A DNA stretch of 64,000 nucleotides from an archaeon (GTDB taxonomy: Archaea; B1Sed10-29; JAVZDC01), in assembly GCA_038874115.1 (NCBI GenBank), contig JAVZDC010000001.1:138871-202870 (forward strand). The letters run 5' to 3'. Position numbers and translations under genes: made by a program. Position 1 is the first letter of the stretch. Each line of letters opens with the position of its first letter. Under the pieces are notes generated by a model. The model worked only from the letters and a program-made list of their open reading frames with translations, searched no databases and was not told the origin of the DNA. Shown piece by piece: positions 1,793-35,102 of the stretch.

Positions 1793-1802
1793 GGGTTTTC
1801 GT

Positions 1803-2891: not shown

Positions 2892-3356
2892 ATGTATGAG
2901 ATCGGAAACATTGAAGGTGTAATAATAAGCAGTAGAAAAACCATTTTAGATGATAGGGGATGTATACGACATTTTATGAAATGTACGGACCCTGAGTTTA
3001 AAAAATTTGGAGAAGTCTACTTCTCAGAAATATTTCCGGGGGTAGTTAAAGGTTGGCATCTTCATACAAAAATGGAGCTAAATTATGTTTGTATTAAGGG
3101 GAATATCAAACTTGTTTTATTGGATTTAAGAGAAAAGTCTCCAACTAAAAATAAGTTAATGGAGATCTATCTTGGGGAAAAAGATTATAAGCTAGTAAAA
3201 ATTCCTCCCGGAGTATTAAATGGATTTACTGCTATTGGAGAAGGTTCTGCAATTGTAGCAAATTTTACGGATATGCCTTACGACCCTGACGAAATTAAAC
3301 GCATCGATCCATGGGACAAATCAATAGGTTATAACTGGAAAGTGAAAGACCGATGA
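2892..3356 (+). CDS. RmlC-like cupin sugar-nucleotide 3,5(5)-epimerase
   Basis: RmlC core pattern: GWHLH, KLVLLDLREKSPTKNKLMEIYL and IPPGVLNGFTAI, comparable to RGLHyQ, DVAVDLR-SPTFG and IPpGfAHGF. Its start is adjacent to the rfbG stop. Confidence 0.65.
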   Translation: MYEIGNIEGVIISSRKTILDDRGCIRHFMKCTDPEFKKFGEVYFSEIFPGVVKGWHLHTKMELNYVCIKGNIKLVLLDLREKSPTKNKLMEIYLGEKDYKLVKIPPGVLNGFTAIGEGSAIVANFTDMPYDPDEIKRIDPWDKSIGYNWKVKDR

Positions 3357-4216
3357 AATTTGCAGTAGTCGGCTCGAATGGCCTTCTTGGAACACATCTA
3401 TATCTCAAACTAAAGGAGGTAAATGAGGAAGTTTTTGGCATAAGTAGAACCAAAAGTATTTTTACGAAGTATAACTGCGATGCTGCTTCTTTCGACGCCA
3501 TCGAAAAGATTATTTTAAAAGAGAAACCAGATATTGTAGTTAATTGTGCAAAATATAAAGGAAAGACAGATAATGCCGAAAAAGAAAGAAAAGAAGCGTA
3601 CATTTCCAACGTGGTGATTGTAAAAAATTTGGTAGCCATACAGAAAGAAATCCCTTTTAAATTGATACAAATATCAACTGATTGGATCTACTCCGGATTT
3701 GAGGAAGAAATATATACGGAAGAAAGTATTCCTTATCCTTTAAATTTTTATGGGTTATCTAAATTATTGGCTGAACAAGAAATAATATTTAAATCAAAAG
3801 ATTATCTCATATTGAGAACTACTGGATTATTTGGAGAAGAACATCCGCCAAAAAACTTTTATGCTAGGTTGAAATACTCTTTAGAAAAAAATGAAAAATT
3901 TTACGCTGCTTTTGACCAATATTCTCAACCAATTTCCGCATTAGAACTTTCTAAAATAATATACCAGCTATCAAAACAGAACGAGTGTGGACTTTTTAAC
4001 GCTACTGGCGGTGAATATCTGTCTAGATATGATTTTGCGAAAAAAATTGCAAGATTTCTAGGCTTGAATGAAGCACAAATAGAAAAAATATCATCAGATT
4101 TTAGAGAAATAAGAATACCTAAATATCTCAAAGTGGATAACTCTAAAATCGAAAAAAAACTGGGTAGAAAAATGAAAAATATCGATGAGATGCTTAAAGA
4201 ATTAAAGGTGACATAA
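3353..4216 (+). CDS. RmlD-like NAD(P)-dependent 4-ketoreductase (dTDP-4-dehydrorhamnose reductase family)
   Basis: MKFAVVGSNGLLGTHL Rossmann N-terminus, about 287 aa, typical of the RmlD substrate-binding family. It overlaps the epimerase stop by 4 nt. Confidence 0.6.
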   Translation: MKFAVVGSNGLLGTHLYLKLKEVNEEVFGISRTKSIFTKYNCDAASFDAIEKIILKEKPDIVVNCAKYKGKTDNAEKERKEAYISNVVIVKNLVAIQKEIPFKLIQISTDWIYSGFEEEIYTEESIPYPLNFYGLSKLLAEQEIIFKSKDYLILRTTGLFGEEHPPKNFYARLKYSLEKNEKFYAAFDQYSQPISALELSKIIYQLSKQNECGLFNATGGEYLSRYDFAKKIARFLGLNEAQIEKISSDFREIRIPKYLKVDNSKIEKKLGRKMKNIDEMLKELKVT

Positions 4217-4217
4217 C

Positions 4218-5552
4218 ATGAGAAATATAACATTAAAAAATAAAATGAAAAAACTTGTAAAAGAGTATTATAAAATTGAAGCTCAAAAAAATAAAAAAAG
4301 TGAATTTATATCAGTTACAGGCAAAAAATATGATGATAAAGAATTGTGGAATGGTATCGAAGCTATCTTGAAAGGGTGGTGGACTGAAGGGGAGTATAAT
4401 TTAGCTTTTGAAAACAAGTTAAAAGAATATGTGGGATGTAAATACGCTGTAACAACTAACTCAGGATCATCAGCCAATCTATTAGCTTTTATGTCTTTGA
4501 CTTCGAAAAAACTTGGAGAAAAAAGAATTCTTCCTGGAGATGAAGTAATCACAGTAGCTGCTTGCTTTCCAACCACGGTCTTTCCGATAATCCAAGCAGA
4601 AGCAGTTCCAGTGTTTGTAGATGTAGATCTTGAAACATATAATGCCAAAGTAGATGAGATAAAAAAAGCGATTTCACCAAAAACGAAAGCAATTTTAATG
4701 GCACATACTCTTGGAAACCCTTTTCAACTAGACGAAATTTTAAAGATAAAAGAAAAATATGATTTGTGGCTAATAGAAGATACATGCGATGCTTTGGGGT
4801 CTACTTATGCTGAAAAAAAAGTGGGTAGTTTTGGGGATTTGTCGACTTTCAGTTTTTATCCAGCACATCACATTACTACTATAGAAGGAGGGGCAATACT
4901 CACCAATAATTCTTTAATACACCGCATCGTCCGGTCTTTCAGAGACTGGGGTAGAGATTGCTGGTGCTCGACTGGAAAAAATGATACTTGCGGAAAAAGA
5001 TTTGGTTGGCAGTTAGGCAAGTTGCCATTTGGGTATGATCATAAATACATATATTCTGAGATTGGGTATAATTTAAAGATGACTGATATTCAAGCTGCGA
5101 TTGGATTGGCACAACTTGAGAAAATAGAAAAATTTTCTGCTATCAGGAAAAAAAATTTTAATTACTTAAAATCAAGAATGATTGAACTCGGACTGGATGA
5201 ATACTTTATACTGCCGAAACAAACTCCGAAAAGTGATCCATGTTGGTTTGGCTTTATACTCACCATAAAGGATAAATATGCAGATCTCATCAGAAGAAAC
5301 GAATTACAACAATATCTTTATAATAACAAAATAGATAGCAGAGTACTGTTCGCCGGAAATATAACAAAACAACCAGTTTTCATTGAAAATGAAATTAATT
5401 ACAAAGTGGTTGGGAATTTATCGAACACAGACAGAATAATGAAAAATTCCTTATGGGTCGGGATCCACCAAGGCCTTAATAAAAAGCATATGGAAAAAAT
5501 TGCAAAAAATATTGCTAATTTCATATATGATAAAATGAGGGGAATTAAATGA
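4218..5552 (+). CDS. rfbH: CDP-6-deoxy-D-xylo-4-hexulose 3-dehydrase (E1, PMP-dependent, [2Fe-2S])
   Basis: DegT/DnrJ fold carrying the E1-specific signatures. The active-site Lys is replaced by His (FSFYPAHHITTIEGG) and a Cys cluster with C-x1-C-x7-C spacing is present (RDWGRDCWCSTGKNDTCGKRF). Length is 444 aa. Confidence 0.8.
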   Translation: MRNITLKNKMKKLVKEYYKIEAQKNKKSEFISVTGKKYDDKELWNGIEAILKGWWTEGEYNLAFENKLKEYVGCKYAVTTNSGSSANLLAFMSLTSKKLGEKRILPGDEVITVAACFPTTVFPIIQAEAVPVFVDVDLETYNAKVDEIKKAISPKTKAILMAHTLGNPFQLDEILKIKEKYDLWLIEDTCDALGSTYAEKKVGSFGDLSTFSFYPAHHITTIEGGAILTNNSLIHRIVRSFRDWGRDCWCSTGKNDTCGKRFGWQLGKLPFGYDHKYIYSEIGYNLKMTDIQAAIGLAQLEKIEKFSAIRKKNFNYLKSRMIELGLDEYFILPKQTPKSDPCWFGFILTIKDKYADLIRRNELQQYLYNNKIDSRVLFAGNITKQPVFIENEINYKVVGNLSNTDRIMKNSLWVGIHQGLNKKHMEKIAKNIANFIYDKMRGIK

Positions 5553-6985
5553 AATTTATTGATCTTACGCAATATGCTTACAAACCTCCTAGCATCGAGG
5601 AACTTTGCGGAGAGATATTGGATAAAAGAGATGGTAGAAAAAAAGATTTGGCTGTAATCGTAGCCACAAGCGGATCGCAAGAAATACTTCATGAATTTTT
5701 AAACTTTGTTTCTAAACAATCATACAAAAAGTTTGATGTTATAATAATATACAATACTTTGGATCCGTTTTATAAGAAATTTGATAATAAGTTATCAATA
5801 CTTCACATCATTAGAAAAAAAAATCTAGGTTTTGGAGGAGCAGTTTATCTTGGACAAAAAATAGCAGTAAAAGAAAAATATAAATATATAACTTTTTTCG
5901 ATGTAGATCGGTTTGTTGTAAATCGAGATGCTTTTAAATTAATGATTGCCGAGTTGGAAAAAAACCCAAGGATTTCTGTTGTGATGGGGTTATGCGAATA
6001 TTCGAATAAAAAAGACTATAGATCAGTTGGTCCGTCTGTACTCGGCGGGATATTTAAAAGAGAATTTTTTGAAAATTATGGGTATTATTATCTTCCTTTT
6101 TACTTTGGTATGGAAGATAATGACTTTACGAGGAGGGTGTATTATTCAAAGGGGTATAAAATCTTGAATGAAGTATTGCTCACTCACCCATATCACACTT
6201 TTTTAAATACTCTTCTGTTCCTTTGGAAAAACTCAACAAAAAATATCTTTCCAACGCAAACAAAAATACTTTATACTTTGCCTGAAGTAGCAGGGGTGGC
6301 AAAATATGTGAGTTCCAAAGAGGTTTATGGTGTGGATTCTAGCTCTTGGAGAAAACTAAGGTTTGCAAGAGTAAGACATGCAATATACATATGGCTTCTT
6401 TTATTCAGATTCAATATAGTTTCTCGTCTAATTTTATCAGGTCTGGAAAAAACACTATCTGGTGTCTTACCCGGCCGTTTAAAATATCCAACTGTTATTA
6501 AGATGGGTAAAGATGTAAAACTTAAAATAAAGTTAGAAGAAATAAAGGACCCTCCTGTGTTTGATCAATTTTTCTATTCCGATAGTAAAGAAGTGAGAAA
6601 AATAATTGATGAGCTAAATATCAAATATAAAGAAAAAATTTCGATACCAGTAGACAAAGGGGCATTATCCAACATCAAACCAACAATAACGCTACTTACT
6701 TTTCCATATAAAGGAAAGGTGGCTTTTTATCATTCGACGATAGGATTATTCTGGAGATACTTCTTATTGAGATATATTCCGTTAGCTTTGCGATTAAAAG
6801 AATTTTATGTCATATACCCGGATGGAAAAGTATATAAAGTTTATCCATTTCGACAGGGGATAATCTCTTCGATACTTTGGAGTTTTTTAAAATCAACGTG
6901 GCAAACGTTCCAAGTAATTTATGCGTTTAGGCACATGCCGTCCACATATAAATATGGGTTGGAAACTACAAAACAAAAAGATTAG
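5549..6985 (+). CDS. Glycosyltransferase family 2 with an approximately 230 aa C-terminal extension
   Basis: GT-A motifs are present: LAVIVATSG, GFGGA, the DxD motif FFDVDRF and FYFGMEDNDF. It overlaps the rfbH stop by 4 nt. Confidence 0.6.
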   Translation: MKFIDLTQYAYKPPSIEELCGEILDKRDGRKKDLAVIVATSGSQEILHEFLNFVSKQSYKKFDVIIIYNTLDPFYKKFDNKLSILHIIRKKNLGFGGAVYLGQKIAVKEKYKYITFFDVDRFVVNRDAFKLMIAELEKNPRISVVMGLCEYSNKKDYRSVGPSVLGGIFKREFFENYGYYYLPFYFGMEDNDFTRRVYYSKGYKILNEVLLTHPYHTFLNTLLFLWKNSTKNIFPTQTKILYTLPEVAGVAKYVSSKEVYGVDSSSWRKLRFARVRHAIYIWLLLFRFNIVSRLILSGLEKTLSGVLPGRLKYPTVIKMGKDVKLKIKLEEIKDPPVFDQFFYSDSKEVRKIIDELNIKYKEKISIPVDKGALSNIKPTITLLTFPYKGKVAFYHSTIGLFWRYFLLRYIPLALRLKEFYVIYPDGKVYKVYPFRQGIISSILWSFLKSTWQTFQVIYAFRHMPSTYKYGLETTKQKD

Positions 6986-14538: not shown

Positions 14539-15642
14539 ATGAACATGAAAATCGGGTGGTTTACTGAAACATACTATCCTCAAATGAATGGGGTGGTAAG
14601 CTCCATTCAGAAAACTGGTGCGGAACTTGTAAAAAGAGGGTATGAAATCCACTTGTTTTGCCCAAAAACAAGCGTAAAAAATAGTATTTTTAAAATACAT
14701 GAAGCTTTTTCATTTACTTTCCCACCTTATCCTGAATTTAAAGTTGGTATACCGCTAAAAATGGATTGCCCAAAGATGGATCTTGTGCACACTCACGGAC
14801 CTTTCTTTATGGGAAGGTATGGAGTTAAAATCGCAAAGAAACAAAAAATTCCAAAAATAAGTACTTTTCACACTCTCTTATCAGACTACGTTGAATACAT
14901 TACTCCGATTGGAAAAAGATTTGCAAGATTTTTAACTTGGAAATATTGCGAAATGCATTATTCTAAATACGATAAATTAATTGTACCAAGTAAAGCATTG
15001 GAAAAAGTTCTTGGGGAAAGAGTTAAACGGCCTATCTCCGTTGTCCCTACAGGAGTAGATTTATCCTTTTTTAAACCTGTGGAAAATGCGCGAGAAAAAC
15101 TTGGCTTGCCTGAGGATAAAAAAATATTTTTATCGGTTGGACGATTAAGTTATGAAAAAAATATCGACGTTCTAATTAAAGCGATGGAAAAAATAGATGA
15201 CGGTTTGCTTTTGATAGGGGGAAGAGGGCCTGCTGAAAATTATTTGAAAGAATGCATAAATAAATGTAATGTTTCAGAAAAAGTTAAACTTTTAGGTTTT
15301 ATAGATCAGAAAGATTTGCCTGCATATTATTCTGCAGCAGATTTTTTCTTAATTGCTTCTTTAAGTGAGACTCAAGCAATTGTTGTTTTAGAAGCCATGG
15401 CTTGCGGAACTCCAGTCATAGGTGTAAATTATCTTGCCATCCCTGAATTTATTCAAAATGGAGTAAATGGATTTATATTTAACCCGAACTCTGTAGAAGA
15501 TCTTGCGGATAAAATGAATGAAAAATGTACTCCAACAATGCGAAGAAAAGCTTTAGAAACTGCGCAAAATTACTCGATAGAAAAATGTACGGACATTTTA
15601 GAAAAAATATATGAAGAATTGGTTAACGCAAAAACTACTTGA
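14539..15642 (+). CDS. Glycosyltransferase family 1
   Basis: GT4 pattern: KIGWFTETYYPQMNGV...E(X7)E-like C-terminal half. Confidence 0.7.
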   Translation: MNMKIGWFTETYYPQMNGVVSSIQKTGAELVKRGYEIHLFCPKTSVKNSIFKIHEAFSFTFPPYPEFKVGIPLKMDCPKMDLVHTHGPFFMGRYGVKIAKKQKIPKISTFHTLLSDYVEYITPIGKRFARFLTWKYCEMHYSKYDKLIVPSKALEKVLGERVKRPISVVPTGVDLSFFKPVENAREKLGLPEDKKIFLSVGRLSYEKNIDVLIKAMEKIDDGLLLIGGRGPAENYLKECINKCNVSEKVKLLGFIDQKDLPAYYSAADFFLIASLSETQAIVVLEAMACGTPVIGVNYLAIPEFIQNGVNGFIFNPNSVEDLADKMNEKCTPTMRRKALETAQNYSIEKCTDILEKIYEELVNAKTT

Positions 15643-16840
15643 ATTCTCTTAAAACTCTTTCATAGAAATCGATGGTTTTTTTGGAAATTATTTCCCAATC
15701 GAACTTTTTGAGTGCAATCTCTCTACTTTTCTTCCCCATTTTTTCTCTAAGGGTTTTGTCTCCTAAAAGGATATTTAACTTTTCCGCTAATGCTGCTGAA
15801 GATCTTTTTGGAACAATAAACCCATTCACCCCATTATCGACTATTTCTGGATTCCCACCAGCATCTGTAGCCACTAAAGGCCTCCCACATGCAAGAGCTT
15901 CTAACAAAGAAAATGGTAAAACTTCCCACAAAGATGGCAGAACATAAACATCACAGCTCGAATAGAGAGCTGGCATTTTTTCGTCAGGGATAAATCCTGG
16001 AAATATTACGTTTTTTGAAATACCAAATTTTTTGGCTTTGAGCATCAGAGATTTCAAAGAATTCCCTCTTCCACAGATGACAAGCCTTGTTTTAGGATAC
16101 TCTTTTAAAACTTCAGGGAATGCTTTTAAAAGATAATGGACTCCTTTTTGAGGTATAAGCCTTCCGGTGAAAAGCACAAGATAGTCTAAACCATCTAAAA
16201 AACCATCTCGTAATGATGGCTCAACTGGCTTAAACTTTTCAACATCTATGCCATTGTGAATAACTTCGATTTTATCTGGATTTATTCCTGGATACATACA
16301 AATATCCCATTTTGCGGCTTCGCTCACAGATATTATTCTATATGCTTTTTTCAAGATTTCTATTCCGTATGCTTTTTCATATGAGTACCCTAAAACAGAT
16401 ACTACATGATTAATCCCGAAAGGTCGAGCATTGTGTAATGTTAACACTCCTGGCTTTCCAATTTTTGCTGCAAATTTAATGGAATAAGCAAAATCTGGGA
16501 ACCATCTTCCATGACAATTAAAGACATCAAAATTATATTTCTTATGTAAATCTTCCAATGCTTTTTTAGCAGACGGAGCGACAGTAAGTGGAGGAGGATA
16601 AATTAAAGGCATTGCGACTTGGTAGCTTGGAATTCTGTGAACGTGCATCCCGAAAACTTTTTCTGATTTTTTTGTATTTTTTATTCTAGAAGTTAATACA
16701 TGCACTTCAAACTTCCTGGCCAACCTTTTTCCATTTTCTAAAATATGGTATTCCGTTCCTCCAGAATAAGGGTAAAAAAATGCATTTGAAATACAAAGTT
16801 TAACTTTTCTCATCAAAATATTTTTATGTAACAAAATCAA
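15635..16840 (-). CDS. Glycosyltransferase family 1
   Basis: GT4 pattern: FTGRLIPQKGVHYLLKAF...GRPLVATDAGGNPEIV. It is convergent with 14539..15642 and overlaps it by 8 nt. Confidence 0.7.
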   Translation of the reverse strand: MILLHKNILMRKVKLCISNAFFYPYSGGTEYHILENGKRLARKFEVHVLTSRIKNTKKSEKVFGMHVHRIPSYQVAMPLIYPPPLTVAPSAKKALEDLHKKYNFDVFNCHGRWFPDFAYSIKFAAKIGKPGVLTLHNARPFGINHVVSVLGYSYEKAYGIEILKKAYRIISVSEAAKWDICMYPGINPDKIEVIHNGIDVEKFKPVEPSLRDGFLDGLDYLVLFTGRLIPQKGVHYLLKAFPEVLKEYPKTRLVICGRGNSLKSLMLKAKKFGISKNVIFPGFIPDEKMPALYSSCDVYVLPSLWEVLPFSLLEALACGRPLVATDAGGNPEIVDNGVNGFIVPKRSSAALAEKLNILLGDKTLREKMGKKSREIALKKFDWEIISKKTIDFYERVLREFK

Positions 16841-22327: not shown

Positions 22328-23881
22328 ATGAAAAAATATTTTGTTTTAATTTTGACTTTGGTCTTTTTTTCTTTTAGTTTTACGAATGCAAATGCGTATA
22401 CAATTTTAAACGGGGGAATTTGTGAATGTAATTCTTGTACCGATTGTACCGCTGCATTAAACGATAGCGAAAACTGTACTTTAGAAGTAAAATTAGTGGA
22501 AAACATAACAAATTATTCTTCTGATTGCATAAATACAGGCTCAATCTATAACAAAACATTCAATTGCAATGGAAATTTCATAGAAGGAGACAATTCATCT
22601 GATTTTTGGGCTATTAGTTTGTCTGGGACGAACATGACAATAAAAAATTGTAATATAAAACATTTTGGTGTGGGAATATTTATAGGGGACATAAGCCCGG
22701 GTTATTATTCAAACTTAATAACTATTGAAAATAATACAATTTCTGAAAATTACATCGGGATTTGGTTCTTGGGAGTAGGACAAAGCATAATTCGAAATAA
22801 TATCATTTCTGCAAATCTAGAGGATGGTATTCATCTTGCTGTTTCTTGCACTCCTAGCGTTGAATTGCCGCATTCTTATAACACTGAGAACATCCAAATT
22901 TTAAATAACACAATAATTTCAAACCAAAGAGGGTTGAACGCTGAAGGAACTCAAAATAGCATCTTTGTGGATAACATTATTGGAAACAATACTGAATTGG
23001 ATCTACAAGTAAAAGGAGGATATTTTTATTACGGTGATGGAGGACCAAGTTGTACGGCTATCTTCGATGCTTTGAACAACACTTTATCATCCATTAATAT
23101 CTATGATCCAGAACTATCTAGAAAAATTGAATTCTCTGAATACGCAGCCAATATATCCTGGAACGAATCTCTTGAAATCAACGGAGTTTCAAATGCAAAT
23201 ATCCCTCAGGACCCAACAGGATACACAAACATAAGCAAATATTTGAACATAAGCTCAAGCACCGGATGGATATTCTTGAATATCTCTTACAATGAATCAG
23301 AATTAGGTAATATTCCTGAATCAAATCTTTTACTATGGAAACATAACGGAACTGAATGGTTTAATTGCTCCCAGTTTGCATCTTCCTGTGGAGTAGATAC
23401 AAACAATAACATAGTTTACGCAAACATAACTAATTTTGGAAGCATATTTACAATCCTTGGTGGAGAAGTAGATACAACTCCACCACACATAATTTCTGGG
23501 CCTACTGTGAATACAAGTACGAATTCAGCAAATATTTCTTGGGTAACTGATGAATTAGCGAACTATACTTTAGTGTACTCTGATGGATCAAATTCATGGA
23601 CTGTAAGCAACTCATCTTTTAATTACTCTCACTTTGTAATTTTAGAAAACTTAGGCGCGAATACAACATACTACTATAATATAACTATCTGGGATCAAAC
23701 AGGAAATAATTTTACGTACACGGATTACAACTTTACGACTCAAGAAATAAATATTTCGGGTGGCGAAGGGACTGTAGAAGTTACAATAACCGCAGCGCCT
23801 GAAGATGATTTGGAGTTCGCACTCACAGTCATAACATCATTTTTACTTTTATTATTTCTATTTCAGAATAAAAAACAATGA
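22328..23881 (+). CDS. Sequon-rich surface protein: right-handed parallel beta-helix repeats, an FN3-like domain and a C-terminal TM anchor
   Basis: Signal peptide followed by repeated NNxIxxNxxG motifs (NNTISENYIGIWF, NNIISANLEDGIHL, NNTIISNQRGLNA) typical of beta-helix proteins. There are dozens of NxS/T sequons. The C-terminus is FALTVITSFLLLLFLF. Confidence 0.55.
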   Translation: MKKYFVLILTLVFFSFSFTNANAYTILNGGICECNSCTDCTAALNDSENCTLEVKLVENITNYSSDCINTGSIYNKTFNCNGNFIEGDNSSDFWAISLSGTNMTIKNCNIKHFGVGIFIGDISPGYYSNLITIENNTISENYIGIWFLGVGQSIIRNNIISANLEDGIHLAVSCTPSVELPHSYNTENIQILNNTIISNQRGLNAEGTQNSIFVDNIIGNNTELDLQVKGGYFYYGDGGPSCTAIFDALNNTLSSINIYDPELSRKIEFSEYAANISWNESLEINGVSNANIPQDPTGYTNISKYLNISSSTGWIFLNISYNESELGNIPESNLLLWKHNGTEWFNCSQFASSCGVDTNNNIVYANITNFGSIFTILGGEVDTTPPHIISGPTVNTSTNSANISWVTDELANYTLVYSDGSNSWTVSNSSFNYSHFVILENLGANTTYYYNITIWDQTGNNFTYTDYNFTTQEINISGGEGTVEVTITAAPEDDLEFALTVITSFLLLLFLFQNKKQ

Positions 23882-25164: not shown

Positions 25165-25297
25165 AAAAATAAAAAAATTAAAGAAGTATTTTAATGTTTC
25201 TGTAAGAATTAAAAATCAAAAAAATAAAAAAGAGTGAGATTGGAGTCGTATTTATTATATTTGATTAAAAAATATATAAAATTTACTGTTTTGGAAG

Positions 25298-25369
25298 TGG
25301 ACCCGGCGGGATTTGAACCCGCGCCCTCCCGCTTGCAAAGCGGGCGATCTTCCGCTGATCTACAGGCCC
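25298..25369 (-). tRNA. tRNA-Ala (anticodon TGC)
   Basis: The reverse complement folds as gggcctg-ta-gatc..gatc-g-cccgc-tttgcaa-gcggg-agggc-gcggg-ttcaaat-cccgc-cgggtcc-a. The Ala identity element, a G3:U70 wobble, is present. Confidence 0.8.
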
Positions 25370-25398
25370 TTTAGATAATAAAACTTTGAAATTTGTAT

Positions 25399-26049
25399 TT
25401 AAGCGTTTTGGATCATGTGAATTTTTTCAAAAACTTCGTCCAAGTCCACTTGGGTATTCATGCATCCTGCTCTAGTGAGAGGTACCCCTTGAGCAGGGAT
25501 AGAAAAGTCCATACACAACTCCAAACCTTGTTTTACCTCGGGGATACACGCTACTCCTAAAATTGCTTTTGGCTTTTCTTTTAAAATTATTCTTTTTATG
25601 AAAGATGATCCAGGCACAATAAATACTTTATACCCTAAATCTTCTGCCTCTTTTTTAATTTTATTTGCTAAACAAGATACATTACAAGAAATACATTCTA
25701 TTCCTTTTTCAGGTGACAGTTTTGCTATGCATTTTGAGTCCCTTAAACACTGTGGTAAAAAAAGTATTCGGTTTTGGTATGGTGTTTTTAAATACGACTG
25801 TTCAAAAATCTTGTTAGCTAAAAAAATTTCAAAAATATCTATTTCTCTTCCAGAAATATTGAAAAACTTTAGGAAGAATTTTATCGGAGTTTCTAAAGTC
25901 AAAAGAATAAAAATTAACAACTTTGCATGTTTTGTTCCTTTTTTAATTGCATAAGCAGTCCAAATCGAAACAATAAGTAAAAATAATATAACCGCGACCA
26001 AAATTCCAGCAAAAACTATTCCAAGAATTTCAAAAACATTCATTAGCAA
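25399..26049 (-). CDS. Membrane protein with conserved Cys motifs (DUF116-like)
   Basis: N-terminal TM helices and a C-terminal domain containing CxxC and other Cys residues (CIAKL...CISCNVSC...GVACIPE...AGCM). Confidence 0.4.
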   Translation of the reverse strand: MLMNVFEILGIVFAGILVAVILFLLIVSIWTAYAIKKGTKHAKLLIFILLTLETPIKFFLKFFNISGREIDIFEIFLANKIFEQSYLKTPYQNRILFLPQCLRDSKCIAKLSPEKGIECISCNVSCLANKIKKEAEDLGYKVFIVPGSSFIKRIILKEKPKAILGVACIPEVKQGLELCMDFSIPAQGVPLTRAGCMNTQVDLDEVFEKIHMIQNA

Positions 26050-26414
26050 GTCACATGAATTAAAGCTATTGTTTTTTTATGTGGCGCTATTTCATTATAA
26101 ACTTTTATGGCTTTTGGAGTTTCATATTGAAGTACCTCAATTTTTTTCTTAGCTAAAAGTTCTATTGCATCATCTGTCAATTTAGCCACGCCAGTTTGTC
26201 CATTTCCAAAAACAAATACTTTAACTCCTTTTTCAAGATGAGGTTCTAATTCTTCAGCACATACGTAGTGAGAAGTTCCAAACTTTTTTTCAGCTAAAGA
26301 TCTATCTCGAATCTCAACATCTCCTTTTAAGTTGACCCAAATGTCGCAATCATATACTGTGTCCTTATACTTAACTTTCCCAAAAGAAGTCCAAACAAAC
26401 ATAAAATCAATCAA
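26043..26414 (-). CDS. Hypothetical protein (possible Mth938-like alpha/beta domain)
   Basis: 123 aa; the assignment rests on weak pattern similarity only. Confidence 0.3.
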   Translation of the reverse strand: MIDFMFVWTSFGKVKYKDTVYDCDIWVNLKGDVEIRDRSLAEKKFGTSHYVCAEELEPHLEKGVKVFVFGNGQTGVAKLTDDAIELLAKKKIEVLQYETPKAIKVYNEIAPHKKTIALIHVTC

Positions 26415-26719
26415 CGCATACCATGGGTGTATCTAACATAAGTGCCGTCTGGACCGCTAATGACAACTAACTCTTTATTTTTCATAATTTCCATCGGATC
26501 ATAGTCGCTTGGTTTTGCTTTTGTTGATCTTCCCGGGTCCGCAATATTAATTATTTCAGCAATTTCTTCCAAAGATAACGCCATTCCAGGAAAGTGTTTA
26601 ACTACCGCAATAACTTCTGCAACTTTTGTTGGTTTTGGAGCATTTTTGATGCTTAATAAAACATTATCGTCTAATCTTTTCATAATTTCAGATCTAAGTT
26701 CTAAAACCACATTCGTCAC
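26411..26719 (-). CDS. Hypothetical protein
   Basis: 102 aa ORF in an operon-like arrangement with its neighbours. Confidence 0.3.
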   Translation of the reverse strand: MTNVVLELRSEIMKRLDDNVLLSIKNAPKPTKVAEVIAVVKHFPGMALSLEEIAEIINIADPGRSTKAKPSDYDPMEIMKNKELVVISGPDGTYVRYTHGMR

Positions 26720-26882: not shown

Positions 26883-26991
26883 GTTTTTATTTATTTTTTT
26901 ACTTTTATATAAACCTTTTTATTTTAGGTGGTTTTCTAAGCATGTAACTTTTAAAGGCAAATATTTTAAATAAAGTGTATATTAAAAATAC

Positions 26992-28359
26992 ATGGGTTGG
27001 AAAGAAGATCTTCCGAAAGCAATAGTATTATGTTTACTTGTATTTGTGATGTTATACTTATTAGTGAAGTTCGGGTGGCTTGCACCTGGCGACATTCCTG
27101 GTTTTTGTGGAGTTTATTATGCGATTGAAGGACAACCAAATATAGCTATAGTTTATGGAGAAGATGGTACTGGAGATCCAGAAGCTTTAAGAAATTTAAT
27201 TGCGGAAACTACTCACAAATTTCCGACTTTGATTCCTTTGGACAATGTATATTCCAGCCAAGTTCTTGAACCGTATGCCTTAGTAATAGTAGATCGGGCG
27301 AAAAAGGTAGACACAGCAAAACTTTATGCATTTAAAGATTATGTTGTTAAAGGTAAAAAATTGGTTTGGATTGGTGATGCTGGGACGGAGTTGGGAGAAA
27401 ACGATTATATTTGTAAAAAAATAACTTGGAGATATTTGCCTGCTTTTGAAGTCCGTCTTGGAATGGAATATAAATGTAGCATGATTTCTTCTGAAGGGGA
27501 TCGAAAAAACTGTGAAGAGGGGGCGTGTGAACAAATAACTGACCCTTCGAATAAACAAATTTGTCTTCTTGCTAAACTTCAAAAAGAATCTGGAACAAGT
27601 GGGACCCAAGTAGTATGTTCACAAGAATGGTTTGAAGAAACCCCAACAGTCCCAAAAGACTTTAAGGAAAAAAATGTTGGAATTTGCGGAAGGAGTTTTG
27701 CAGAAATTGTATTGAAATTTATTGAATTTAATCAATCGATTTATGAATCGGTGAATAAGTCCCCAGTAACTTTATGCCCTACAGAAAAAGAACCTTTCAG
27801 AGTAGAGGGAGCTGAATCTATAATTGCTTGTTTAGAAACATTAAAGAAAGAGAATAAACCACCTACATTAAACAGCATAAAAGAAACTTGTGTTTATTCC
27901 TTTACTGGAACTTACCAGTACGCTTTAAATCCTTGGAATAGAGGACCATCCAAAACACCAAGCGGGATTGTAGAAGGGTTAGACTTTAGCTTTATACTTG
28001 GAATGGACTACGTTTCTGACTATTATGCTAAGAGTGCGTCTGGCATTTGGTTTGAACCTGTTGATATGAATCATCCTTTGCTTGCAGGGACAGGATACGA
28101 AGCTAAAACGCAATACGCTGGAGAAGCACACTTTGGAATCGTAAATATTGAAAGATTTTCCCACAGAAGTTCATCTGTACTTAATTTAAGAATAAGTGGC
28201 AAAGTTTATCCTGGGATCGTAGTGTCCAATCCATCTGGACCTAGTCCTTTGAAAAGAGGGAATGTGATTTATATAGCATACCCTCCAGAAGAACTGGCTG
28301 GGGAAACGAAAGCGGGAAGTAATTTATTGTATAACATAATAAAATATTCCACCTGCTAG
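26992..28359 (+). CDS. Membrane-anchored extracytoplasmic protein, paralog 1 of a tandem triplet
   Basis: N-terminal TM (AIVLCLLVFVMLYLLV). The ectodomain contains ALVIVDRAKKVDTAKLYAFKDYVVKGKKLVWIGDAG, resembling a flavodoxin-like or class I GATase-like alpha/beta core, and ends in NVIYIAYPPEE. Confidence 0.45.
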   Translation: MGWKEDLPKAIVLCLLVFVMLYLLVKFGWLAPGDIPGFCGVYYAIEGQPNIAIVYGEDGTGDPEALRNLIAETTHKFPTLIPLDNVYSSQVLEPYALVIVDRAKKVDTAKLYAFKDYVVKGKKLVWIGDAGTELGENDYICKKITWRYLPAFEVRLGMEYKCSMISSEGDRKNCEEGACEQITDPSNKQICLLAKLQKESGTSGTQVVCSQEWFEETPTVPKDFKEKNVGICGRSFAEIVLKFIEFNQSIYESVNKSPVTLCPTEKEPFRVEGAESIIACLETLKKENKPPTLNSIKETCVYSFTGTYQYALNPWNRGPSKTPSGIVEGLDFSFILGMDYVSDYYAKSASGIWFEPVDMNHPLLAGTGYEAKTQYAGEAHFGIVNIERFSHRSSSVLNLRISGKVYPGIVVSNPSGPSPLKRGNVIYIAYPPEELAGETKAGSNLLYNIIKYSTC

Positions 28360-28392
28360 AAAAAAATTTAAATATATAAAACAAATTAAAAA

Positions 28393-29220
28393 GTGAGTGT
28401 GATCGAAATGGCTGCGGATTGGGAAGATTATGAAGAAGGACGTGGATTGAAAAGATATGAAATAACAATACCTCTTTTGCTATTGATATTTGTATTTTTC
28501 ATAATTGCTTGGAAATTTAATTGGCTTGTTGGGCTTCCAGTGATAGGAGAAATTTTATATCCGAAAGCAATAAATGTTTTAATCGTTGGTAACGATTTAT
28601 CAATACAACAATCTCTTCAACAAATGCAAATAGGACTTCCAATAAACTATCATGTTCTGTCTGCTAATGAAATTCAAAATATAATATCCTCTGATTATTT
28701 GAAAAAATATGACTTGGTAATACTAACTGAATATGCGGGAAATAATCCGGGAGAACTTCCACAAATGTTTAGAAGCCACTTGGTTAAATATTTACAAGGG
28801 GGAGGAAAGTTAATCCTATATGGGGTTGCAGGAAGTATTGATCCTGAATCTCCGACAACAGATGGATGGAAACAAGAAGGTTTAAACATTTACATTCCAG
28901 TAACATGTACATCTAGACCTTGCCAAAAAGAAACTTTCTCTGCTGCAGATTTGATAATTTTAATTAGACAACCTGAGCATAGAATAGTAAAAGAATTTGG
29001 ATATTCAACAAACTTTAGTGATTCCCCTATCGAAATAACAAAAGTTAACCCTGAAAACGAGGAGGTATTTGTAATTAAAGATAATTTGACAAGAGTTGTG
29101 TATCCTGGAGTTGTAGAAAAATCATTTGGTATAACTGGAAAAACGGTGTATTTCTCATACCATCCATCAAAGCACCCAGTTATATTTAAAAACACGATAT
29201 CATATTTATTTGGGAGGTAA
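28393..29220 (+). CDS. Membrane-anchored extracytoplasmic protein, paralog 2
   Basis: N-terminal YEITIPLLLLIFVFFII TM; ectodomain with INVLIVGND...YDLVILTEYAG...GGGKLILYGVAGSIDPESP; ends in VYFSYHP...ISYLFGR. Confidence 0.45.
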   Translation: MSVIEMAADWEDYEEGRGLKRYEITIPLLLLIFVFFIIAWKFNWLVGLPVIGEILYPKAINVLIVGNDLSIQQSLQQMQIGLPINYHVLSANEIQNIISSDYLKKYDLVILTEYAGNNPGELPQMFRSHLVKYLQGGGKLILYGVAGSIDPESPTTDGWKQEGLNIYIPVTCTSRPCQKETFSAADLIILIRQPEHRIVKEFGYSTNFSDSPIEITKVNPENEEVFVIKDNLTRVVYPGVVEKSFGITGKTVYFSYHPSKHPVIFKNTISYLFGR

Positions 29221-29224
29221 TTGA

Positions 29225-30103
29225 ATGAGTGCGGAGTATTATGACTATTATGGAAATGGTGGATTTAGAAAATATTTAGAAGGGATAATTCCATTGCTGC
29301 TTTTAGCGATCATTGGGATTGTACTTTTAGGAAAAACAACATCGATCTTTTGTAATGTGCCAGTGCTTAACTCGGTATTTTGCCCAGTCAAAATAACCAA
29401 AATTGCTGTAATTGGAGACTTTGAAGCGAAAAACGTCGAAAATCCAACAGAAGTGAAAGCTCCAGAGTTCAAGAATTGGCTAGATCTCGAAGGCCCAAAT
29501 TGGAAAGTGTATTATGAAGTTTTTCCAGCAGAAGTGTTTCAATATTCAAAAGAAGCATTGCTTAAAAACTATGACATAGTGGTCATGGTGGGAGAGAGAA
29601 ACTTTACAAGAGCAGTAAAGGATGCGATAGGATGGTATGTAGACAATGGTGGAAAATTAATAATAATTGGAGATGCTGGGATATATGATCCTGGAGACGT
29701 TTTTGTGAATGGCTGGGGTGGAGAATTGTCCCGCGCGGCTCCAGTACAACTTATAGATGCAACAGGATATCAACTGAAAGAACCTGTGTTGCGTATTATG
29801 GACATCGAACACCCAATATACAAAGAAACTGCTTATGGAATTGGTGGAGCAAACTTTTCCAAATTAAAGGACAAACCGAGTTGCTATCAAGAACTAAAGA
29901 TAATTAGAATAATTCCAAATCAAGGAAAAACGATCGCAGTACTCAAAGGGAAAGACCAGCAAAATAAACCTAAGTTAGAACCAGCAGTTATAGATTCTGG
30001 AGCACTTTGGGGCGGCAGAGTAATATACTTTGCATACGACCCGGGATGCACTCCAAACGCGCTATTGAACACAATAAGATACTTAAGCGGAAAAGCAAGA
30101 TAA
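29225..30103 (+). CDS. Membrane-anchored extracytoplasmic protein, paralog 3
   Basis: N-terminal YLEGIIPLLLLAIIGIVLL TM; ectodomain with IAVIGDF...YDIVVMVGE...NGGKLIIIGDAGIYDPGDV; ends in VIYFAYDPG...IRYLSGKA. It is clearly homologous to paralog 2. Confidence 0.45.
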   Translation: MSAEYYDYYGNGGFRKYLEGIIPLLLLAIIGIVLLGKTTSIFCNVPVLNSVFCPVKITKIAVIGDFEAKNVENPTEVKAPEFKNWLDLEGPNWKVYYEVFPAEVFQYSKEALLKNYDIVVMVGERNFTRAVKDAIGWYVDNGGKLIIIGDAGIYDPGDVFVNGWGGELSRAAPVQLIDATGYQLKEPVLRIMDIEHPIYKETAYGIGGANFSKLKDKPSCYQELKIIRIIPNQGKTIAVLKGKDQQNKPKLEPAVIDSGALWGGRVIYFAYDPGCTPNALLNTIRYLSGKAR

Positions 30104-31911: not shown

Positions 31912-32478
31912 TTGACGAATAAAAAGCCGGTAATAGTTGGAATCGATCCTGGATCTACGATCGGAATAGCAATTTTAAATTTCAATGGTGAAATAATCGA
32001 TCTAATGAGTGGAAAGAACTTAAGTTTGAAAGACATTGTTTTTGCGTTACAAGAATATGAACCAACGATAATCGGCACAGATAGAGTACCCGCACCAAAA
32101 ATAATTAAAAAACTATGCTCTATCTTTAAAGCTAAACTTTATCTTCCAAAAAGGCCTTTGGAAAGATTGGAAAAAAGTAAAATAATTCAAGGATACAATT
32201 TTAAAAATCAACATGAAGCTGATGCATTGGCAAGTGCGTTAAAAGCATACATGAGCTTTTCTGGAAAGATAAGACAAATAAAAAAACAAGAAGGAGCGAA
32301 TTTTGAAAATATGATAAAAAAGAGGCTTTTTGAAAAAAGATCTAGCGAAAGCTTTTTAATGGCTAAAAGTAATAATAAAAACAAGGAGGTAGATAGCGAT
32401 GACGGAGAATCAAAGCGTGATTTACATCGGAAAAAAAGGGCTAATGAAATACATTTTGGCAGCAACTCAGGCGTTTAA
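31912..32478 (+). CDS. RuvC/YqgF-like RNase H-fold domain protein
   Basis: VIVGIDPGSTIGIAIL has a catalytic-Asp context and HEADALASALKAY resembles the RuvC-family C-terminal motif. The 3' 80 nt overlap the Alba gene. Confidence 0.35.
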   Translation: MTNKKPVIVGIDPGSTIGIAILNFNGEIIDLMSGKNLSLKDIVFALQEYEPTIIGTDRVPAPKIIKKLCSIFKAKLYLPKRPLERLEKSKIIQGYNFKNQHEADALASALKAYMSFSGKIRQIKKQEGANFENMIKKRLFEKRSSESFLMAKSNNKNKEVDSDDGESKRDLHRKKRANEIHFGSNSGV

Positions 32479-32674
32479 CGCCGGTGCAAACGAAATTACG
32501 ATAAAAGCTAGAGGAAAATTAATATCTAGAGCAGTAGATGTAGCGGAAATTATAAAAAATAAATTTATGAAAGAAATAAAAGTCAAAGACATAAAAATAG
32601 GTACTGAAGAGGTTCAAAATTCAGATGGAAGCAAATCCCTTGTCTCAAACATCGAAATTGTTCTTTCAAAGTAA
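32399..32674 (+). CDS. albA: DNA/RNA-binding protein Alba
   Basis: VIYIGKKGLMKYILAATQAFNAGANEITIKARGKLISRAVDVAEII matches the Alba consensus (vIGKKPVMNYV...IKARGRAISKAVD). A strong SD (AAGGAGGT) lies 8 nt upstream of the ATG. Confidence 0.8.
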   Translation: MTENQSVIYIGKKGLMKYILAATQAFNAGANEITIKARGKLISRAVDVAEIIKNKFMKEIKVKDIKIGTEEVQNSDGSKSLVSNIEIVLSK

Positions 32675-32693: not shown

Positions 32694-35102
32694 TTATCCT
32701 TTTTGCAGTATTGGTTTTGCAAAGATAAAATATATTGCTACTCCTATTAACACTAGAACAATACAAAGAATCAGGATTATTTTTTCATCAAGTACACTTT
32801 CCTGAAAAGAAGTTTGATTTTGACTTGTAACATTATTTTGTCCTTCGGAAGTTTTATTACCTTGAATATTTGCGGAATAATTTTGCAAAGCGATTGCAAA
32901 CCAAGAGAAATTAGATAACCTTGCTTTAAAAGTATAAAAAATATCATTTTCCCCTATCTTCTCAATCGGGATGTCGTACCAAGAGTTATTGAAATACTTC
33001 AATAAAATTATATCTTGCCAAGAAGCATTTCTTTGAGAAAGCCAGGACTTTGAGACGTTAAATTGCAAGGATAAATTACTTAAAATGGATGAGTTCGTTA
33101 TTTGAATGTCAAAAAACAAATAAACTGAATTATTTGGTGCAATAATCGATTGTGGTTTCTGGAACGATTCGGTATATTGGAATGAAACATTTCCAGAGGA
33201 GTTAAACCAAAATTCAAACAAAAATACTGTTTTGTTTTCCAAAGTAATGTTCTTTATCTCTCCTTTCTGTCCAGAGATTATTTTTGTTTGGTTTTGAGAT
33301 GCATTTCCAGACTGGTTTGTTCCCCCTCCGCCGTTACTTTGTTGCTGTTGCTCATTTGAAATAACTGCAATCGTTGTGCTGTTTGAGACTTGAGACATTT
33401 TACAAACAATTGGGCCTGAAACCGTACAATCATCTGTGGTTGCTGAAAAAGTGAGTAATAAAGTCCCCGCTACCTGAGGAATACAATTATACGTGTAAGA
33501 ATGCTCTGATTCATTCGCAGATACTAAATAACAAACGCCATTATTGAAAGTATAAGTTGGAGTAACAGATTTCTGTCCATACTTACTCCAAACAATCACT
33601 GTAAAAGTAGATCCTTTTGTCAAAGATACATAAGAAGTATTTGCGCTAATGTTTAAAAAATCGTTCAAGTTAAAACTAGAACTCACATTCGTGTAAGTAT
33701 TTTCATAAGAAAGTTTTAAAACATATATTCCACTCGGCCAGGATTGTGATCTTATTTCATATTTTTGAGAAATTAAAGCCGATGTATTTTCATCTAAAAG
33801 TGTAGAGTTCGGATAGTATACTCTGTACGAGAAGTTTGTATTTGGTGCTTGAATCCCATTTTGCGAAATATTTGAAACATTTAAGAAAAGAGAAGTTTTA
33901 TTGAAGTATACAGAACCAATATAATTTAAAGAATAATTGATTTCTCCAATCAAACCATATAAAGAACCGTTTTCATGCACTGTAATGTTTAATTGTATAA
34001 AATTAAAGGGTAAGTTATTTGGTCCAACTTCTTGAAAGGATTCTTTTGAGTTCGCAAAAGAAGAATAATCCATATACCAAGTGTTGTTGTATTTAGAAAA
34101 AACTACCTGGGAAAAACTAGTATATGGCCATGTTGATTGATTTGGAAGCCCAATCCCGAGAGCTAAAGGCAAATATTGAGCGTTTGAAGAAAAATTAAGA
34201 TACAACAAAGCTTGATTCGAAATTAAAAAATAATTTTGAGGCGGAGTTAAACTCGAAGGGTTCAATGCTTTTAAAAGAATACTGGAAGGTTCTGACTTCC
34301 AAGTTTTTAGTACCGCATAATATTTATCGATTCCGATTAAAGCAGAAAGATTGAAAAAAGTAACATCTATTAAAAAAATGTCTGCTGCGCTGCTATTATA
34401 AATAGAACATCTAAGCAAATTTATTTCAGAAGTTTGATTAACAAATATACCAATTGTAGAATTTGATACTATGTTCTCAATGATGGAACCATTCGTTGCA
34501 TTTTCAATATAAAACCCAAATTCTGCAAGACTAATGGAATTATGTAAAAAAGTGAAATTTTCCAAGTTTTTGAGGAACACGGGTTTAGAAACATGATTAA
34601 AAATATTTAAGTACGCTTCTACTCGTCCATTGGATTCAGAAAATATTCCGTACGATAAATTTTCGAACGCATTTGAAGAAATATTAAGCACTGCATTAAT
34701 GGCAAGTATTCCATAAGAGCTATTTGTAAAATTATTGTTTACACTAGATATCGGTACTTCATTTCCCGAATTAGAAATATTTATAGCGGTAGAAAAGTTT
34801 TGAAAATTACAATTTAAAAAAGAAATGTTGTTTTTACCTTCTATTAGTAAGCCTAGATTTGAACCATTTCCAAATATGAAAGTATAATTGCAATCAAATA
34901 TAAGTCCGGATGAATTTAAAACAAAAATTGGGGAAGCATTTGAAAAGACTGGCTCAGTACAGTTCAAAGTCACGTTTGTGTTGATGAAATATGTATCTTC
35001 TCCACTACTTGGACAAAAAGCATCTGAATTCACAGGAATCTCTACACAAATCCCGGAAAAAAGCATGAAAAGGAATATAGAAAATATTTTCAAATTTTTC
35101 AT
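32694..35102 (-). CDS. Large sequon-rich surface (S-layer-like) glycoprotein candidate with beta-helix repeats, a signal peptide and a C-terminal TM anchor
   Basis: 802 aa with N-terminal MKNLKIFSIFLFMLFSGICVEIPVNS and C-terminal ILILCIVLVLIGVAIYFIFAK. It has an extreme density of NxS/T sequons and parallel beta-helix-like repeats (NSISLAEFGFYIENATNGSIIENIVSNSTIGIFVNQTS). Confidence 0.55.
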   Translation of the reverse strand: MKNLKIFSIFLFMLFSGICVEIPVNSDAFCPSSGEDTYFINTNVTLNCTEPVFSNASPIFVLNSSGLIFDCNYTFIFGNGSNLGLLIEGKNNISFLNCNFQNFSTAINISNSGNEVPISSVNNNFTNSSYGILAINAVLNISSNAFENLSYGIFSESNGRVEAYLNIFNHVSKPVFLKNLENFTFLHNSISLAEFGFYIENATNGSIIENIVSNSTIGIFVNQTSEINLLRCSIYNSSAADIFLIDVTFFNLSALIGIDKYYAVLKTWKSEPSSILLKALNPSSLTPPQNYFLISNQALLYLNFSSNAQYLPLALGIGLPNQSTWPYTSFSQVVFSKYNNTWYMDYSSFANSKESFQEVGPNNLPFNFIQLNITVHENGSLYGLIGEINYSLNYIGSVYFNKTSLFLNVSNISQNGIQAPNTNFSYRVYYPNSTLLDENTSALISQKYEIRSQSWPSGIYVLKLSYENTYTNVSSSFNLNDFLNISANTSYVSLTKGSTFTVIVWSKYGQKSVTPTYTFNNGVCYLVSANESEHSYTYNCIPQVAGTLLLTFSATTDDCTVSGPIVCKMSQVSNSTTIAVISNEQQQQSNGGGGTNQSGNASQNQTKIISGQKGEIKNITLENKTVFLFEFWFNSSGNVSFQYTESFQKPQSIIAPNNSVYLFFDIQITNSSILSNLSLQFNVSKSWLSQRNASWQDIILLKYFNNSWYDIPIEKIGENDIFYTFKARLSNFSWFAIALQNYSANIQGNKTSEGQNNVTSQNQTSFQESVLDEKIILILCIVLVLIGVAIYFIFAKPILQKG

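Follow-up and report, generated by a model that had tools for sequence, protein, structure and literature searches.

Three consecutive genes in a 64-kb window of archaeal DNA (64,000 nucleotides of contig JAVZDC010000001.1, assembly GCA_038874115.1), here called A, B and C, encode homologous, anciently diverged paralogs of one family, each predicted to carry an outward-facing ectodomain of glutamine-amidotransferase-1-like (GATase1-like) fold tethered by a single N-terminal transmembrane (TM) helix. This structural and evolutionary part of our reading, taken together, is held with high confidence. The fuller proposal, in which the three proteins would assist a membrane export machine from the outer side of the membrane, as a module without catalytic activity and probably hetero-oligomeric, is tentative and falls somewhat short of being probable, with a functional link to the Sec translocon in particular being doubtful. 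The window has a G+C content of ~33% and contains archaeal housekeeping genes including Alba, ATP-dependent DNA ligase, Sec61-beta, TFIIB, thermosome, proteasome and exosome subunits and several tRNA synthetases. It belongs to a DPANN archaeon, Micrarchaeota-like, since among the more distant relatives of A, B and C are proteins of Candidatus Micrarchaeota, Candidatus Iainarchaeum and a 'Nanobdellati archaeon'; all named source genomes of the family are DPANN archaea.

In keeping with the original prediction, made by a model from the sequence, the three genes are consecutive and co-directional open reading frames (ORFs) of 455, 275 and 292 aa on the + strand, and pairwise similarity of all three is detectable by BLASTP, by hidden Markov model (HMM) searches and by hhalign. 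B and C align over their full length at 25% identity (BLASTP E 1e-14), with A matching B at E 8e-5 and C at E 0.004. In searches of the 261 ORFs of the window, an HMM of B and C orthologs recovered A at E 1.2e-10 and an HMM of A orthologs recovered C at E 7e-9 and B at E 1.7e-5, with no further paralogs found by either profile, while hhalign of the A family against the B and C family gave a probability of 98.4% (E 8e-15). The significant sequence match of A is limited to the TM helix and the first ~130 residues, with the C-terminal half appearing, in the structure model, to complete the same domain. The motifs quoted in the original prediction were likewise found: B contains VLIVGND, YDLVIL and GGKLILYGVAG, the TM helices of B and C begin with E-x-x-I-P-L-L-L-L, and the C-termini carry V.YF.Y.P ... 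YL.G. The family motif set (E-x-x-I-P TM helix, GG-K-L-I, G-W, P-V, H-P-I and Y-F-x-Y-D-P) is complete in B and C, with A carrying the TM helix, the GG/GDAG part and the C-terminal Y-x-A-Y-P-P. In C the ectodomain motifs are GDAG (149–152), G163-W164, P173, H196-P-I and Y268-F-A-Y-D-P. The ectodomain of A, for which 15 homologs were found at 35–98% identity, is split by a Cys-rich, mostly helical insert of ~180 residues, which varies in length among orthologs and is missing from the alignment in the short A-like proteins P0029 and P0030.

A, B and C each have one strongly hydrophobic segment, near the N-terminus, and no second, and are predicted to be type II (N-in, C-out) single-pass membrane proteins with a short cytoplasmic tail, the architecture originally proposed for them. 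Topology and conservation statistics were computed over 125 family members. Lysine and arginine residues within 12 residues of the TM helix average 2.26 on the N-side vs 0.65 on the C-side, and Cys residues following the helix are even in number in 98% of members and in 100% of the A family (mean 9.1; the A protein of the window has 12). In the distant homolog P0160 a signal peptide precedes the domain, after which come a TM helix and a cytoplasmic ABC ATPase. From the charge bias, the even Cys counts and this order of domains, the ectodomain is predicted to lie outside the cell and to be disulfide-bonded. The signal peptide of P0160 looks cleavable, and another distant homolog, P0101, has a signal peptide followed by Cys. 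A class III (pilin-like) signal peptide at the conserved E-G/I-I-P was considered and rejected on account of the Pro at +3 and the lack of Gly or Ala at −1 in B.

AlphaFold2 models of A and C, built on ortholog alignments, had a mean predicted local distance difference test (pLDDT) score of 83.2 and 82.7, respectively, with a predicted TM-score (pTM) of 0.78 for C, and were compared with the PDB using Foldseek. C matched 2gk3 (STM3548) at E 2.8e-8, 1t0b at E 1e-6 and 4pxy at E 3.9e-6, with TM-scores of 0.53–0.60 to targets of ~245 residues (0.59–0.60 for 1t0b and 4pxy), while A matched the GH42 middle domain and ThuA-like proteins at E 2e-5 to 1e-4. The matches of the two models comprised STM3548 (2gk3), STM1381 (3soz), ThuA-like proteins (1t0b, 4jqs/4pxy) and GH42 middle domains (5e9a, 4uzs, 5xb7), together with a weak partial match to GMP synthase subunit A (2a9v). 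When a profile of the 125 members was searched against PDB sequences, 2gk3 (E 3.8e-5) and 3rht, a 'GATase1-like' protein (E 1.8e-3), were followed by GH42, ThuA-like proteins and IFT52. The ectodomain is thus modelled as a GATase1-like fold, the group that includes ThuA, STM3548, GH42 domain B and the GldG/IFT52 'GIFT' domain. The class I glutamine-amidotransferase-like or flavodoxin-like core recognised in the original prediction is borne out by these models (pLDDT ~83) and by their matches to ThuA-like proteins, STM3548 and the GH42 trimerisation domain (E 1e-8 to 1e-5).

No Pfam or NCBIfam model was matched at threshold by A, B or C, in agreement with the earlier view that they do not belong to a well-known housekeeping family. 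Against ThuA (PF06283, threshold 33.4 bits) B scored 17.4 and C 16.4 bits, with no match for A, and C scored 21.6 bits against ABC_transp_aux (PF09822, threshold 34.7 bits, E 1.5e-4) and 12 bits against GldG (TIGR03521, threshold 389.9 bits, E 0.059). Sub-threshold Pfam matches among the 125 members were to ThuA in 46 (best E 7.5e-8), ABC_transp_aux in 23, GLMA_2nd in 15, GH42M in 12, GATase1_like (PF07090) in five, none of them A, B or C, and DUF4350 in three. As these weak matches fall in the same fold group and none passes a threshold, the family is an unmodelled branch of the GATase1-like fold group. STM3548/GATase1_like (PF07090; 2gk3, 3rht) and ThuA-like proteins (PF06283; 1t0b, 4pxy) are the best structural and profile matches, with the same alpha/beta fold and the same order of motifs (a YD-x-V-I-L strand, a GG-x-L-I strand, Trp then PV, and HP-I-x-x-G). 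However, STM3548 and the ThuA-like proteins are soluble, with STM3548 annotated as cytoplasmic, whereas A, B and C are disulfide-rich proteins predicted to be tethered outside by the N-terminal TM helix, occur as two or three fixed paralogs and lie below every Pfam threshold. The literature on ThuA, GldG and DUF4350 in DPANN lineages yielded no description of this family, which is so far undescribed, the fold group being known and the architecture and gene linkage distinct.

The fold is common to A, B, C and the catalytic class I amidotransferases, but the nucleophile Cys that those enzymes have at the elbow after the fourth strand is absent from the family, and for a His-Glu pair H196 and E257 are ~76% conserved and not invariant. 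The nucleophile elbow reads GDAG in A and C and GVAG in B, the Asp having been lost in the latter (YGVAG). Over the 125 members the elbow position is D in 51% and N in 21%, then V, I, R or G, with A or S at the next position, and Cys occurs in the elbow only at its last position, in 18%. Only G163, W164, P173 and Y268 (C numbering) are conserved in at least 90% of members. The HP-I-x-x-G and W...PV motifs are common to the family, STM3548 and 3rht and seem to mark the fold group rather than to form a catalytic triad. Because the elbow Cys is absent and no candidate catalytic residue is invariant, the Cys-His-Glu machinery of class I amidotransferases appears to be missing and the proteins are probably not amidotransferase-type enzymes. 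The suggestion of surface enzymology in the original prediction is as such unlikely, because the elbow holds no conserved nucleophile.

Among 1.84 billion cluster representatives, a profile search recovered 237 members at E ≤1e-3. The order A-B-C on one strand was found in the eight related loci with enough sequence (L001–L007 and L096, the order in L096 being assigned by homology to P0016, P0031 and P0002), with orthologs across related triplet loci being 36–46% identical and the B/C junctions in L001–L006 tight (0–12 nt) or overlapping. Eighty further metagenome loci carry a more distant sub-family, usually in the form of an A-like gene (310–380 aa, without the large insert) followed by a C-like gene, with one C-like gene alone in some lineages. 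For all 83 non-A family genes in these distant loci the C profile gives a better score than the B profile does, which suggests that B is a lineage-specific extra paralog and that the A/C split is the old one. The tandem duplication of the original prediction holds insofar as three paralogs are neighbours, but a recent event is ruled out by the 25% identity of B and C and by the order fixed in all related loci. The triplication is thus ancient, and A, B and C have been kept over a long time as distinct subunits. Since it is kept across many DPANN lineages despite their tiny genomes, the gene set is probably central to these cells. Most conserved DPANN membrane proteins are still without an assignment; one set can now be placed in a defined fold group, as proteins predicted to face outwards and unlikely to be enzymes. 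In one triplet locus (L005, a Micrarchaeota metagenome-assembled genome, 3806–5093) the A gene is split into two overlapping ORFs, through either a frameshift (pseudogene) or an assembly error.

The genomic neighbourhood of the family was compared after grouping the loci into 29 lineages at 60% identity, of which 21 had readable upstream sequence. In 13 of these 21 lineages the gene directly upstream, on the opposite strand, is Sec61-beta (archaeal SecG, the 'secG' of the original prediction), as it is in each of the 13 pair-type loci whose upstream sequence is long enough. The triplet had been described as lying downstream of this gene; in fact Sec61-beta is on the minus strand and the triplet is divergent from it. 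The gene beyond Sec61-beta encodes an isoleucyl-tRNA synthetase (IleRS)-like protein in nine loci and deoxyhypusine synthase in six, with thermosome, AdoMet decarboxylase, an ATP-grasp protein, adenylate kinase or a MazE-like protein elsewhere, and DUF498 and a 102-aa protein in the window's own group. Because this gene differs between lineages, the junction of Sec61-beta and the family outlives the loss of the surrounding synteny. A recurrent block of Sec61-beta (−), A-like, C-like and Alba genes was found in L013 and L044–L094 (for example L049 5590–8014 and L092 5408–8068). The 102-aa protein between DUF498 and Sec61-beta in the window (26411–26719, −) has no Pfam match and occurs in the same position in L002, L004, L005 and L006 at 53–59% identity.

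On this basis we propose that the paralogs would assemble as a hetero-oligomer at the outer face of the cytoplasmic membrane, where this module would serve in binding or scaffolding and not as an enzyme. Hetero-oligomerisation is suggested by co-inheritance, tight coupling of the genes, the divergence of B and trimerisation of GH42 enzymes through the same fold. The domain B of GH42 beta-galactosidases (PF08532), which has the same fold, mediates trimer formation, suggesting a role in oligomer assembly, although in A, B and C the domain stands alone without the glycosidase barrel and is membrane-tethered. The module would be an accessory of a membrane export machine, for which the Sec translocon would be the most likely partner because the head-to-head arrangement with Sec61-beta is kept while other neighbours change, with an ABC-2 exporter perhaps taking this place in some distant homologs. 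It would probably handle exported (glyco)proteins or envelope glycans via the near-invariant Trp and Tyr, residues that would suit sugar binding. Should the Sec61-beta link prove functional, it would point to a hitherto overlooked archaeal accessory for exporting proteins or assembling the envelope. Even without such a link, the family provides a compact and conserved marker of the surface of these organisms.

Several observations weigh against this proposal. In the large sub-lineage L016–L043 one family gene lies between enolase and ribosomal protein L1 with Sec61-beta not nearby, and the triplet loci L001 and L003 lack Sec61-beta upstream. Alba lies directly downstream in 11 of 26 lineages; since it has no obvious export link and is also kept adjacent, the Sec61-beta/family/Alba block could be an inherited gene string and not a functional unit. 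No ABC transporter, vWA, MoxR or AglB gene is present in the 64-kb window, and the archaeal assignment of loci L016–L095 comes from neighbour genes only. A catalytic role may also be carried by D150, H196 and E/D257, which are conserved in 50–76% of members.

A narrower form of the export proposal would make A and C (with B) extracytoplasmic accessory subunits of the Sec translocon in DPANN, a GIFT-fold module at the SecYE-beta exit receiving or glycan-checking exported proteins. It would run parallel to OST48/Wbp1, to which it is perhaps distantly related. OST48/Wbp1 of the eukaryotic oligosaccharyltransferase (OST) has a GIFT domain and works beside the Sec61 translocon (PMC7226087). The likeness, at fold-group level only, is that of a membrane-anchored, non-catalytic domain, the A/B/C genes being kept beside Sec61-beta, whereas the anchor of OST48 is C-terminal and that of A, B and C N-terminal. 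A specific kinship with OST48/Wbp1 was rejected, no such chain having been found in the profile search of PDB sequences (E ≤10) or among the 50 best Foldseek matches, and no archaeal OST48 has been reported (PMC11417166). This narrower form is very unlikely; if true, it would be the first lineage-specific archaeal translocon accessory complex described outside the Asgard and TACK homologs of OST and TRAP (translocon-associated protein).

The closest described archaeal analogue of A, B and C is arCOG01314/DUF4350 (PF14258), an archaeal protein anchored in the membrane, whose extracellular domain is flavodoxin-like and GldG-like and which was assigned to a predicted secretion or membrane-remodelling complex (Makarova et al., 2015, PMC5898192). 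Its fold resembles those of GldG and the GH42 middle domain, and homo- or hetero-oligomers in the service of the secretion system have been predicted for it. It carries a signal peptide and, at the C-terminus, a TM helix, and its gene is accompanied by those of a MoxR ATPase and a vWA protein (PMC5898192). In contrast, the anchor of A, B and C is N-terminal, their neighbours are Sec61-beta and Alba with no MoxR or vWA gene in the window, and DUF4350 is weakly matched by only 3 of the 125 members. One triplet locus (L001, 458–5788) has upstream an opposite-strand gene for a vWA-domain protein, an 880-aa protein without a Pfam match and a DUF2268 protein; this vWA gene, seen once only, is reminiscent of the setting of arCOG01314.

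As an alternative to an association with Sec, the proteins could serve, in the manner of GldG, as auxiliary subunits of an ABC-2 exporter whose genes lie elsewhere in the genome, with their ectodomains on the outer face of the permease helping to export or hand over a lipid or glycan. GldG/ABC_transp_aux and the GIFT domain of IFT52 resemble A, B and C as non-catalytic accessory ectodomains of the same fold group, and C has faint matches to both ABC_transp_aux and GldG, with ABC_transp_aux touched by 23 of the 125 members as noted above. GldG is linked with GldA/GldF (PMC5898192), and likewise two distant family homologs are linked to ABC-2 transporters. The ABC-ATPase fusion P0160 adjoins an ABC-2 permease gene (L010, 4694–8319), and P0141 (778 aa) is followed directly downstream by ABC_tran and ABC2_membrane genes (L015, 2216–7666), with DNA ligase nearby as in the window. 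However, this ABC link is confined to 2 of the 29 lineages, no ABC gene lies in the window or beside any triplet or pair locus, and all the profile scores are far below their thresholds. Moreover, GldG-type proteins are larger and anchored at both ends, whereas A, B and C are much smaller with a single anchor. Such a role for the triplet is unlikely.

An enzymatic role has also been considered, in which membrane-tethered ThuA-like ecto-enzymes would act on sugars or envelope glycans, with acidic and His residues replacing the amidotransferase triad. ThuA is the commonest weak Pfam match of the family, and glycan-synthesis genes are present elsewhere in the window. Of the residues in question, D150 (GDAG motif) never varies in the A family and is frequent in C, and conservation of H196 and E257 is ~76%. 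Set against this, none of these candidate residues is invariant across the family and B has lost D150. The nearest relatives of solved structure (STM3548, GH42 domain B and IFT52) are not known to be catalytic in this domain, which also counts against such an activity, and we regard it as quite unlikely.

The original prediction took tandem duplication of exposed proteins in a small genome as a sign of host or cell interaction, and in its strongest form this would make A, B and C fast-evolving surface adhesins or receptors for episymbiont-host attachment, or virus targets. The predicted position of the domain outside the cell and the DPANN identity of the organism are in keeping with it. The selection on the three genes was measured by comparison with strain L096 (GCA_038885235), which is 95.5% identical to the window over 14.6 kb. 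A (omega 0.087, dS 0.075, dN 0.0066), B (omega 0.154, dS 0.104, dN 0.0159) and C as a whole (omega 0.218, dS 0.52, dN 0.113) are under purifying selection, omega being 0.09–0.22, with neighbouring genes having omega 0.03–0.23, dS 0.03–0.2 and dN 0–0.03. Between 29400 and 30000 (+), in the ectodomain of C, there are 132 mismatches in 600 nt (~22%) vs a background of ~8 per 200 nt (~4%), and codons 151–255 of C have omega 0.18, dS 1.4 and dN 0.25. Local positive selection as the cause was rejected, since dS is also saturated there and omega is 0.18. Because high dS is combined with low omega, the hotspot looks like a divergent allele imported by recombination, and allelic variation at C may serve strain-level ecology.

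This recombined allele, in strains otherwise so similar, is the sole observation favouring an exposed, contested surface. Against it, conservation of the family is deep, each locus has one set in fixed order within a housekeeping neighbourhood, the omega values are low even within the hotspot, A and B are 98–99% identical between the strains, and there is no copy-number expansion in the window. The duplication itself, being old, ordered and single-copy, does not point to host interaction, and an adhesin or receptor function is rather improbable. In the same comparison, smaller mismatch peaks of 24 per 200 nt were seen at 25200–25400, around tRNA-Ala (25297–25369) and its flanks, and at 32400–32600, where the DUF460 ORF (31912–32478) overlaps the start of Alba (32399–32674). 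A 517-aa beta-helix protein had an omega of 0.23 between strains, a value above that of every other flanking gene tested outside the triplet (C, 0.22).

It is highly improbable that A, B and C are anchors or spacers of an S-layer or pseudo-periplasm, the three paralogs forming a stalk that sets the distance of the surface layer, for although type II anchors with a compact disulfide-bonded ectodomain, three paralogs conserved together and large sequon-rich surface proteins nearby (22328–23881 and 32694–35102) would fit, the AlphaFold2 models of A and C contain no coiled-coil or long stalk and no adjacency to a surface-layer gene is conserved across loci.

Sec61-beta and the triplet are divergently transcribed (Table 1). 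By the usual spacing of archaeal TATA boxes, the two back-to-back TATA-like boxes in the 109-bp spacer are putative promoters, and the TTTAAATATATAA box between A and B may be a candidate internal promoter for B-C. The start of B is most likely the ATG at 28408, giving a protein of 270 aa, because the NCBI model P0031 and the N-termini of orthologs agree on it and a TATA-like box lies upstream. The stop codon of B (29218–29220) is followed by only 4 nt before the start of C.

Table 1. Features of the Sec61-beta/A-B-C locus, in window coordinates.
Feature	Position	Strand	Basis
Sec61-beta (archaeal SecG), 53 aa	26721-26882	-	Pfam Sec61_beta E 9.5e-9, above threshold
Divergent intergenic region Sec61-beta/A, 109 bp, two back-to-back TATA-like boxes	26883-26991	.	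read from sequence
TATA-like box TATATAAAAG, ~20-28 nt 5' of Sec61-beta ATG (putative promoter)	26901-26910	-	read from sequence
TATA-like box TTTTAAATA, ~24 nt 5' of A ATG (putative promoter)	26964-26972	+	read from sequence
Gene A, 455 aa	26992-28359	+	ORF
Predicted TM helix of A (aa 10-28)	27019-27075	+	
Cys-rich insert of A (~aa 136-315)	27397-27936	+	
TATA-like box TTTAAATATATAA between A and B, ~35 nt 5' of B ATG 28408 (candidate promoter)	28367-28379	+	read from sequence
Gene B, 275 aa by ORF listing from GTG 28393	28393-29220	+	ORF
Gene B, revised, 270 aa from ATG (most likely start)	28408-29220	+	NCBI model P0031, ortholog N-termini
Predicted TM helix of B, followed by GATase1-like ectodomain	28462-28518	+	
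GGAGG Shine-Dalgarno-like motif, 7 nt 5' of C ATG	29213-29217	+	read from sequence
Gene C, 292 aa	29225-30103	+	ORF
Predicted TM helix of C (aa 18-36) with E19-x-x-I-P23 motif	29276-29332	+	
Predicted GATase1-like ectodomain of C (~aa 55-290)	29387-30094	+	

Elsewhere in the window two putative surface proteins are encoded, one of 517 aa with a right-handed beta-helix domain (22328–23881, +) and one of 802 aa, with a very high density of N-x-S/T sequons, a TM helix at its C-terminus and no Pfam match (32694–35102, −). A sugar-nucleotide/glycan cluster at 1019–6985 comprises genes for a nucleotidyl transferase, a 4,6-dehydratase, a 3,5-epimerase, an RmlD-like reductase, a DegT aminotransferase and a family 2 glycosyltransferase (GT2), and two convergent family 4 glycosyltransferase (GT4) genes at 14539–16840 adjoin the gene for a DUF2070 membrane protein.

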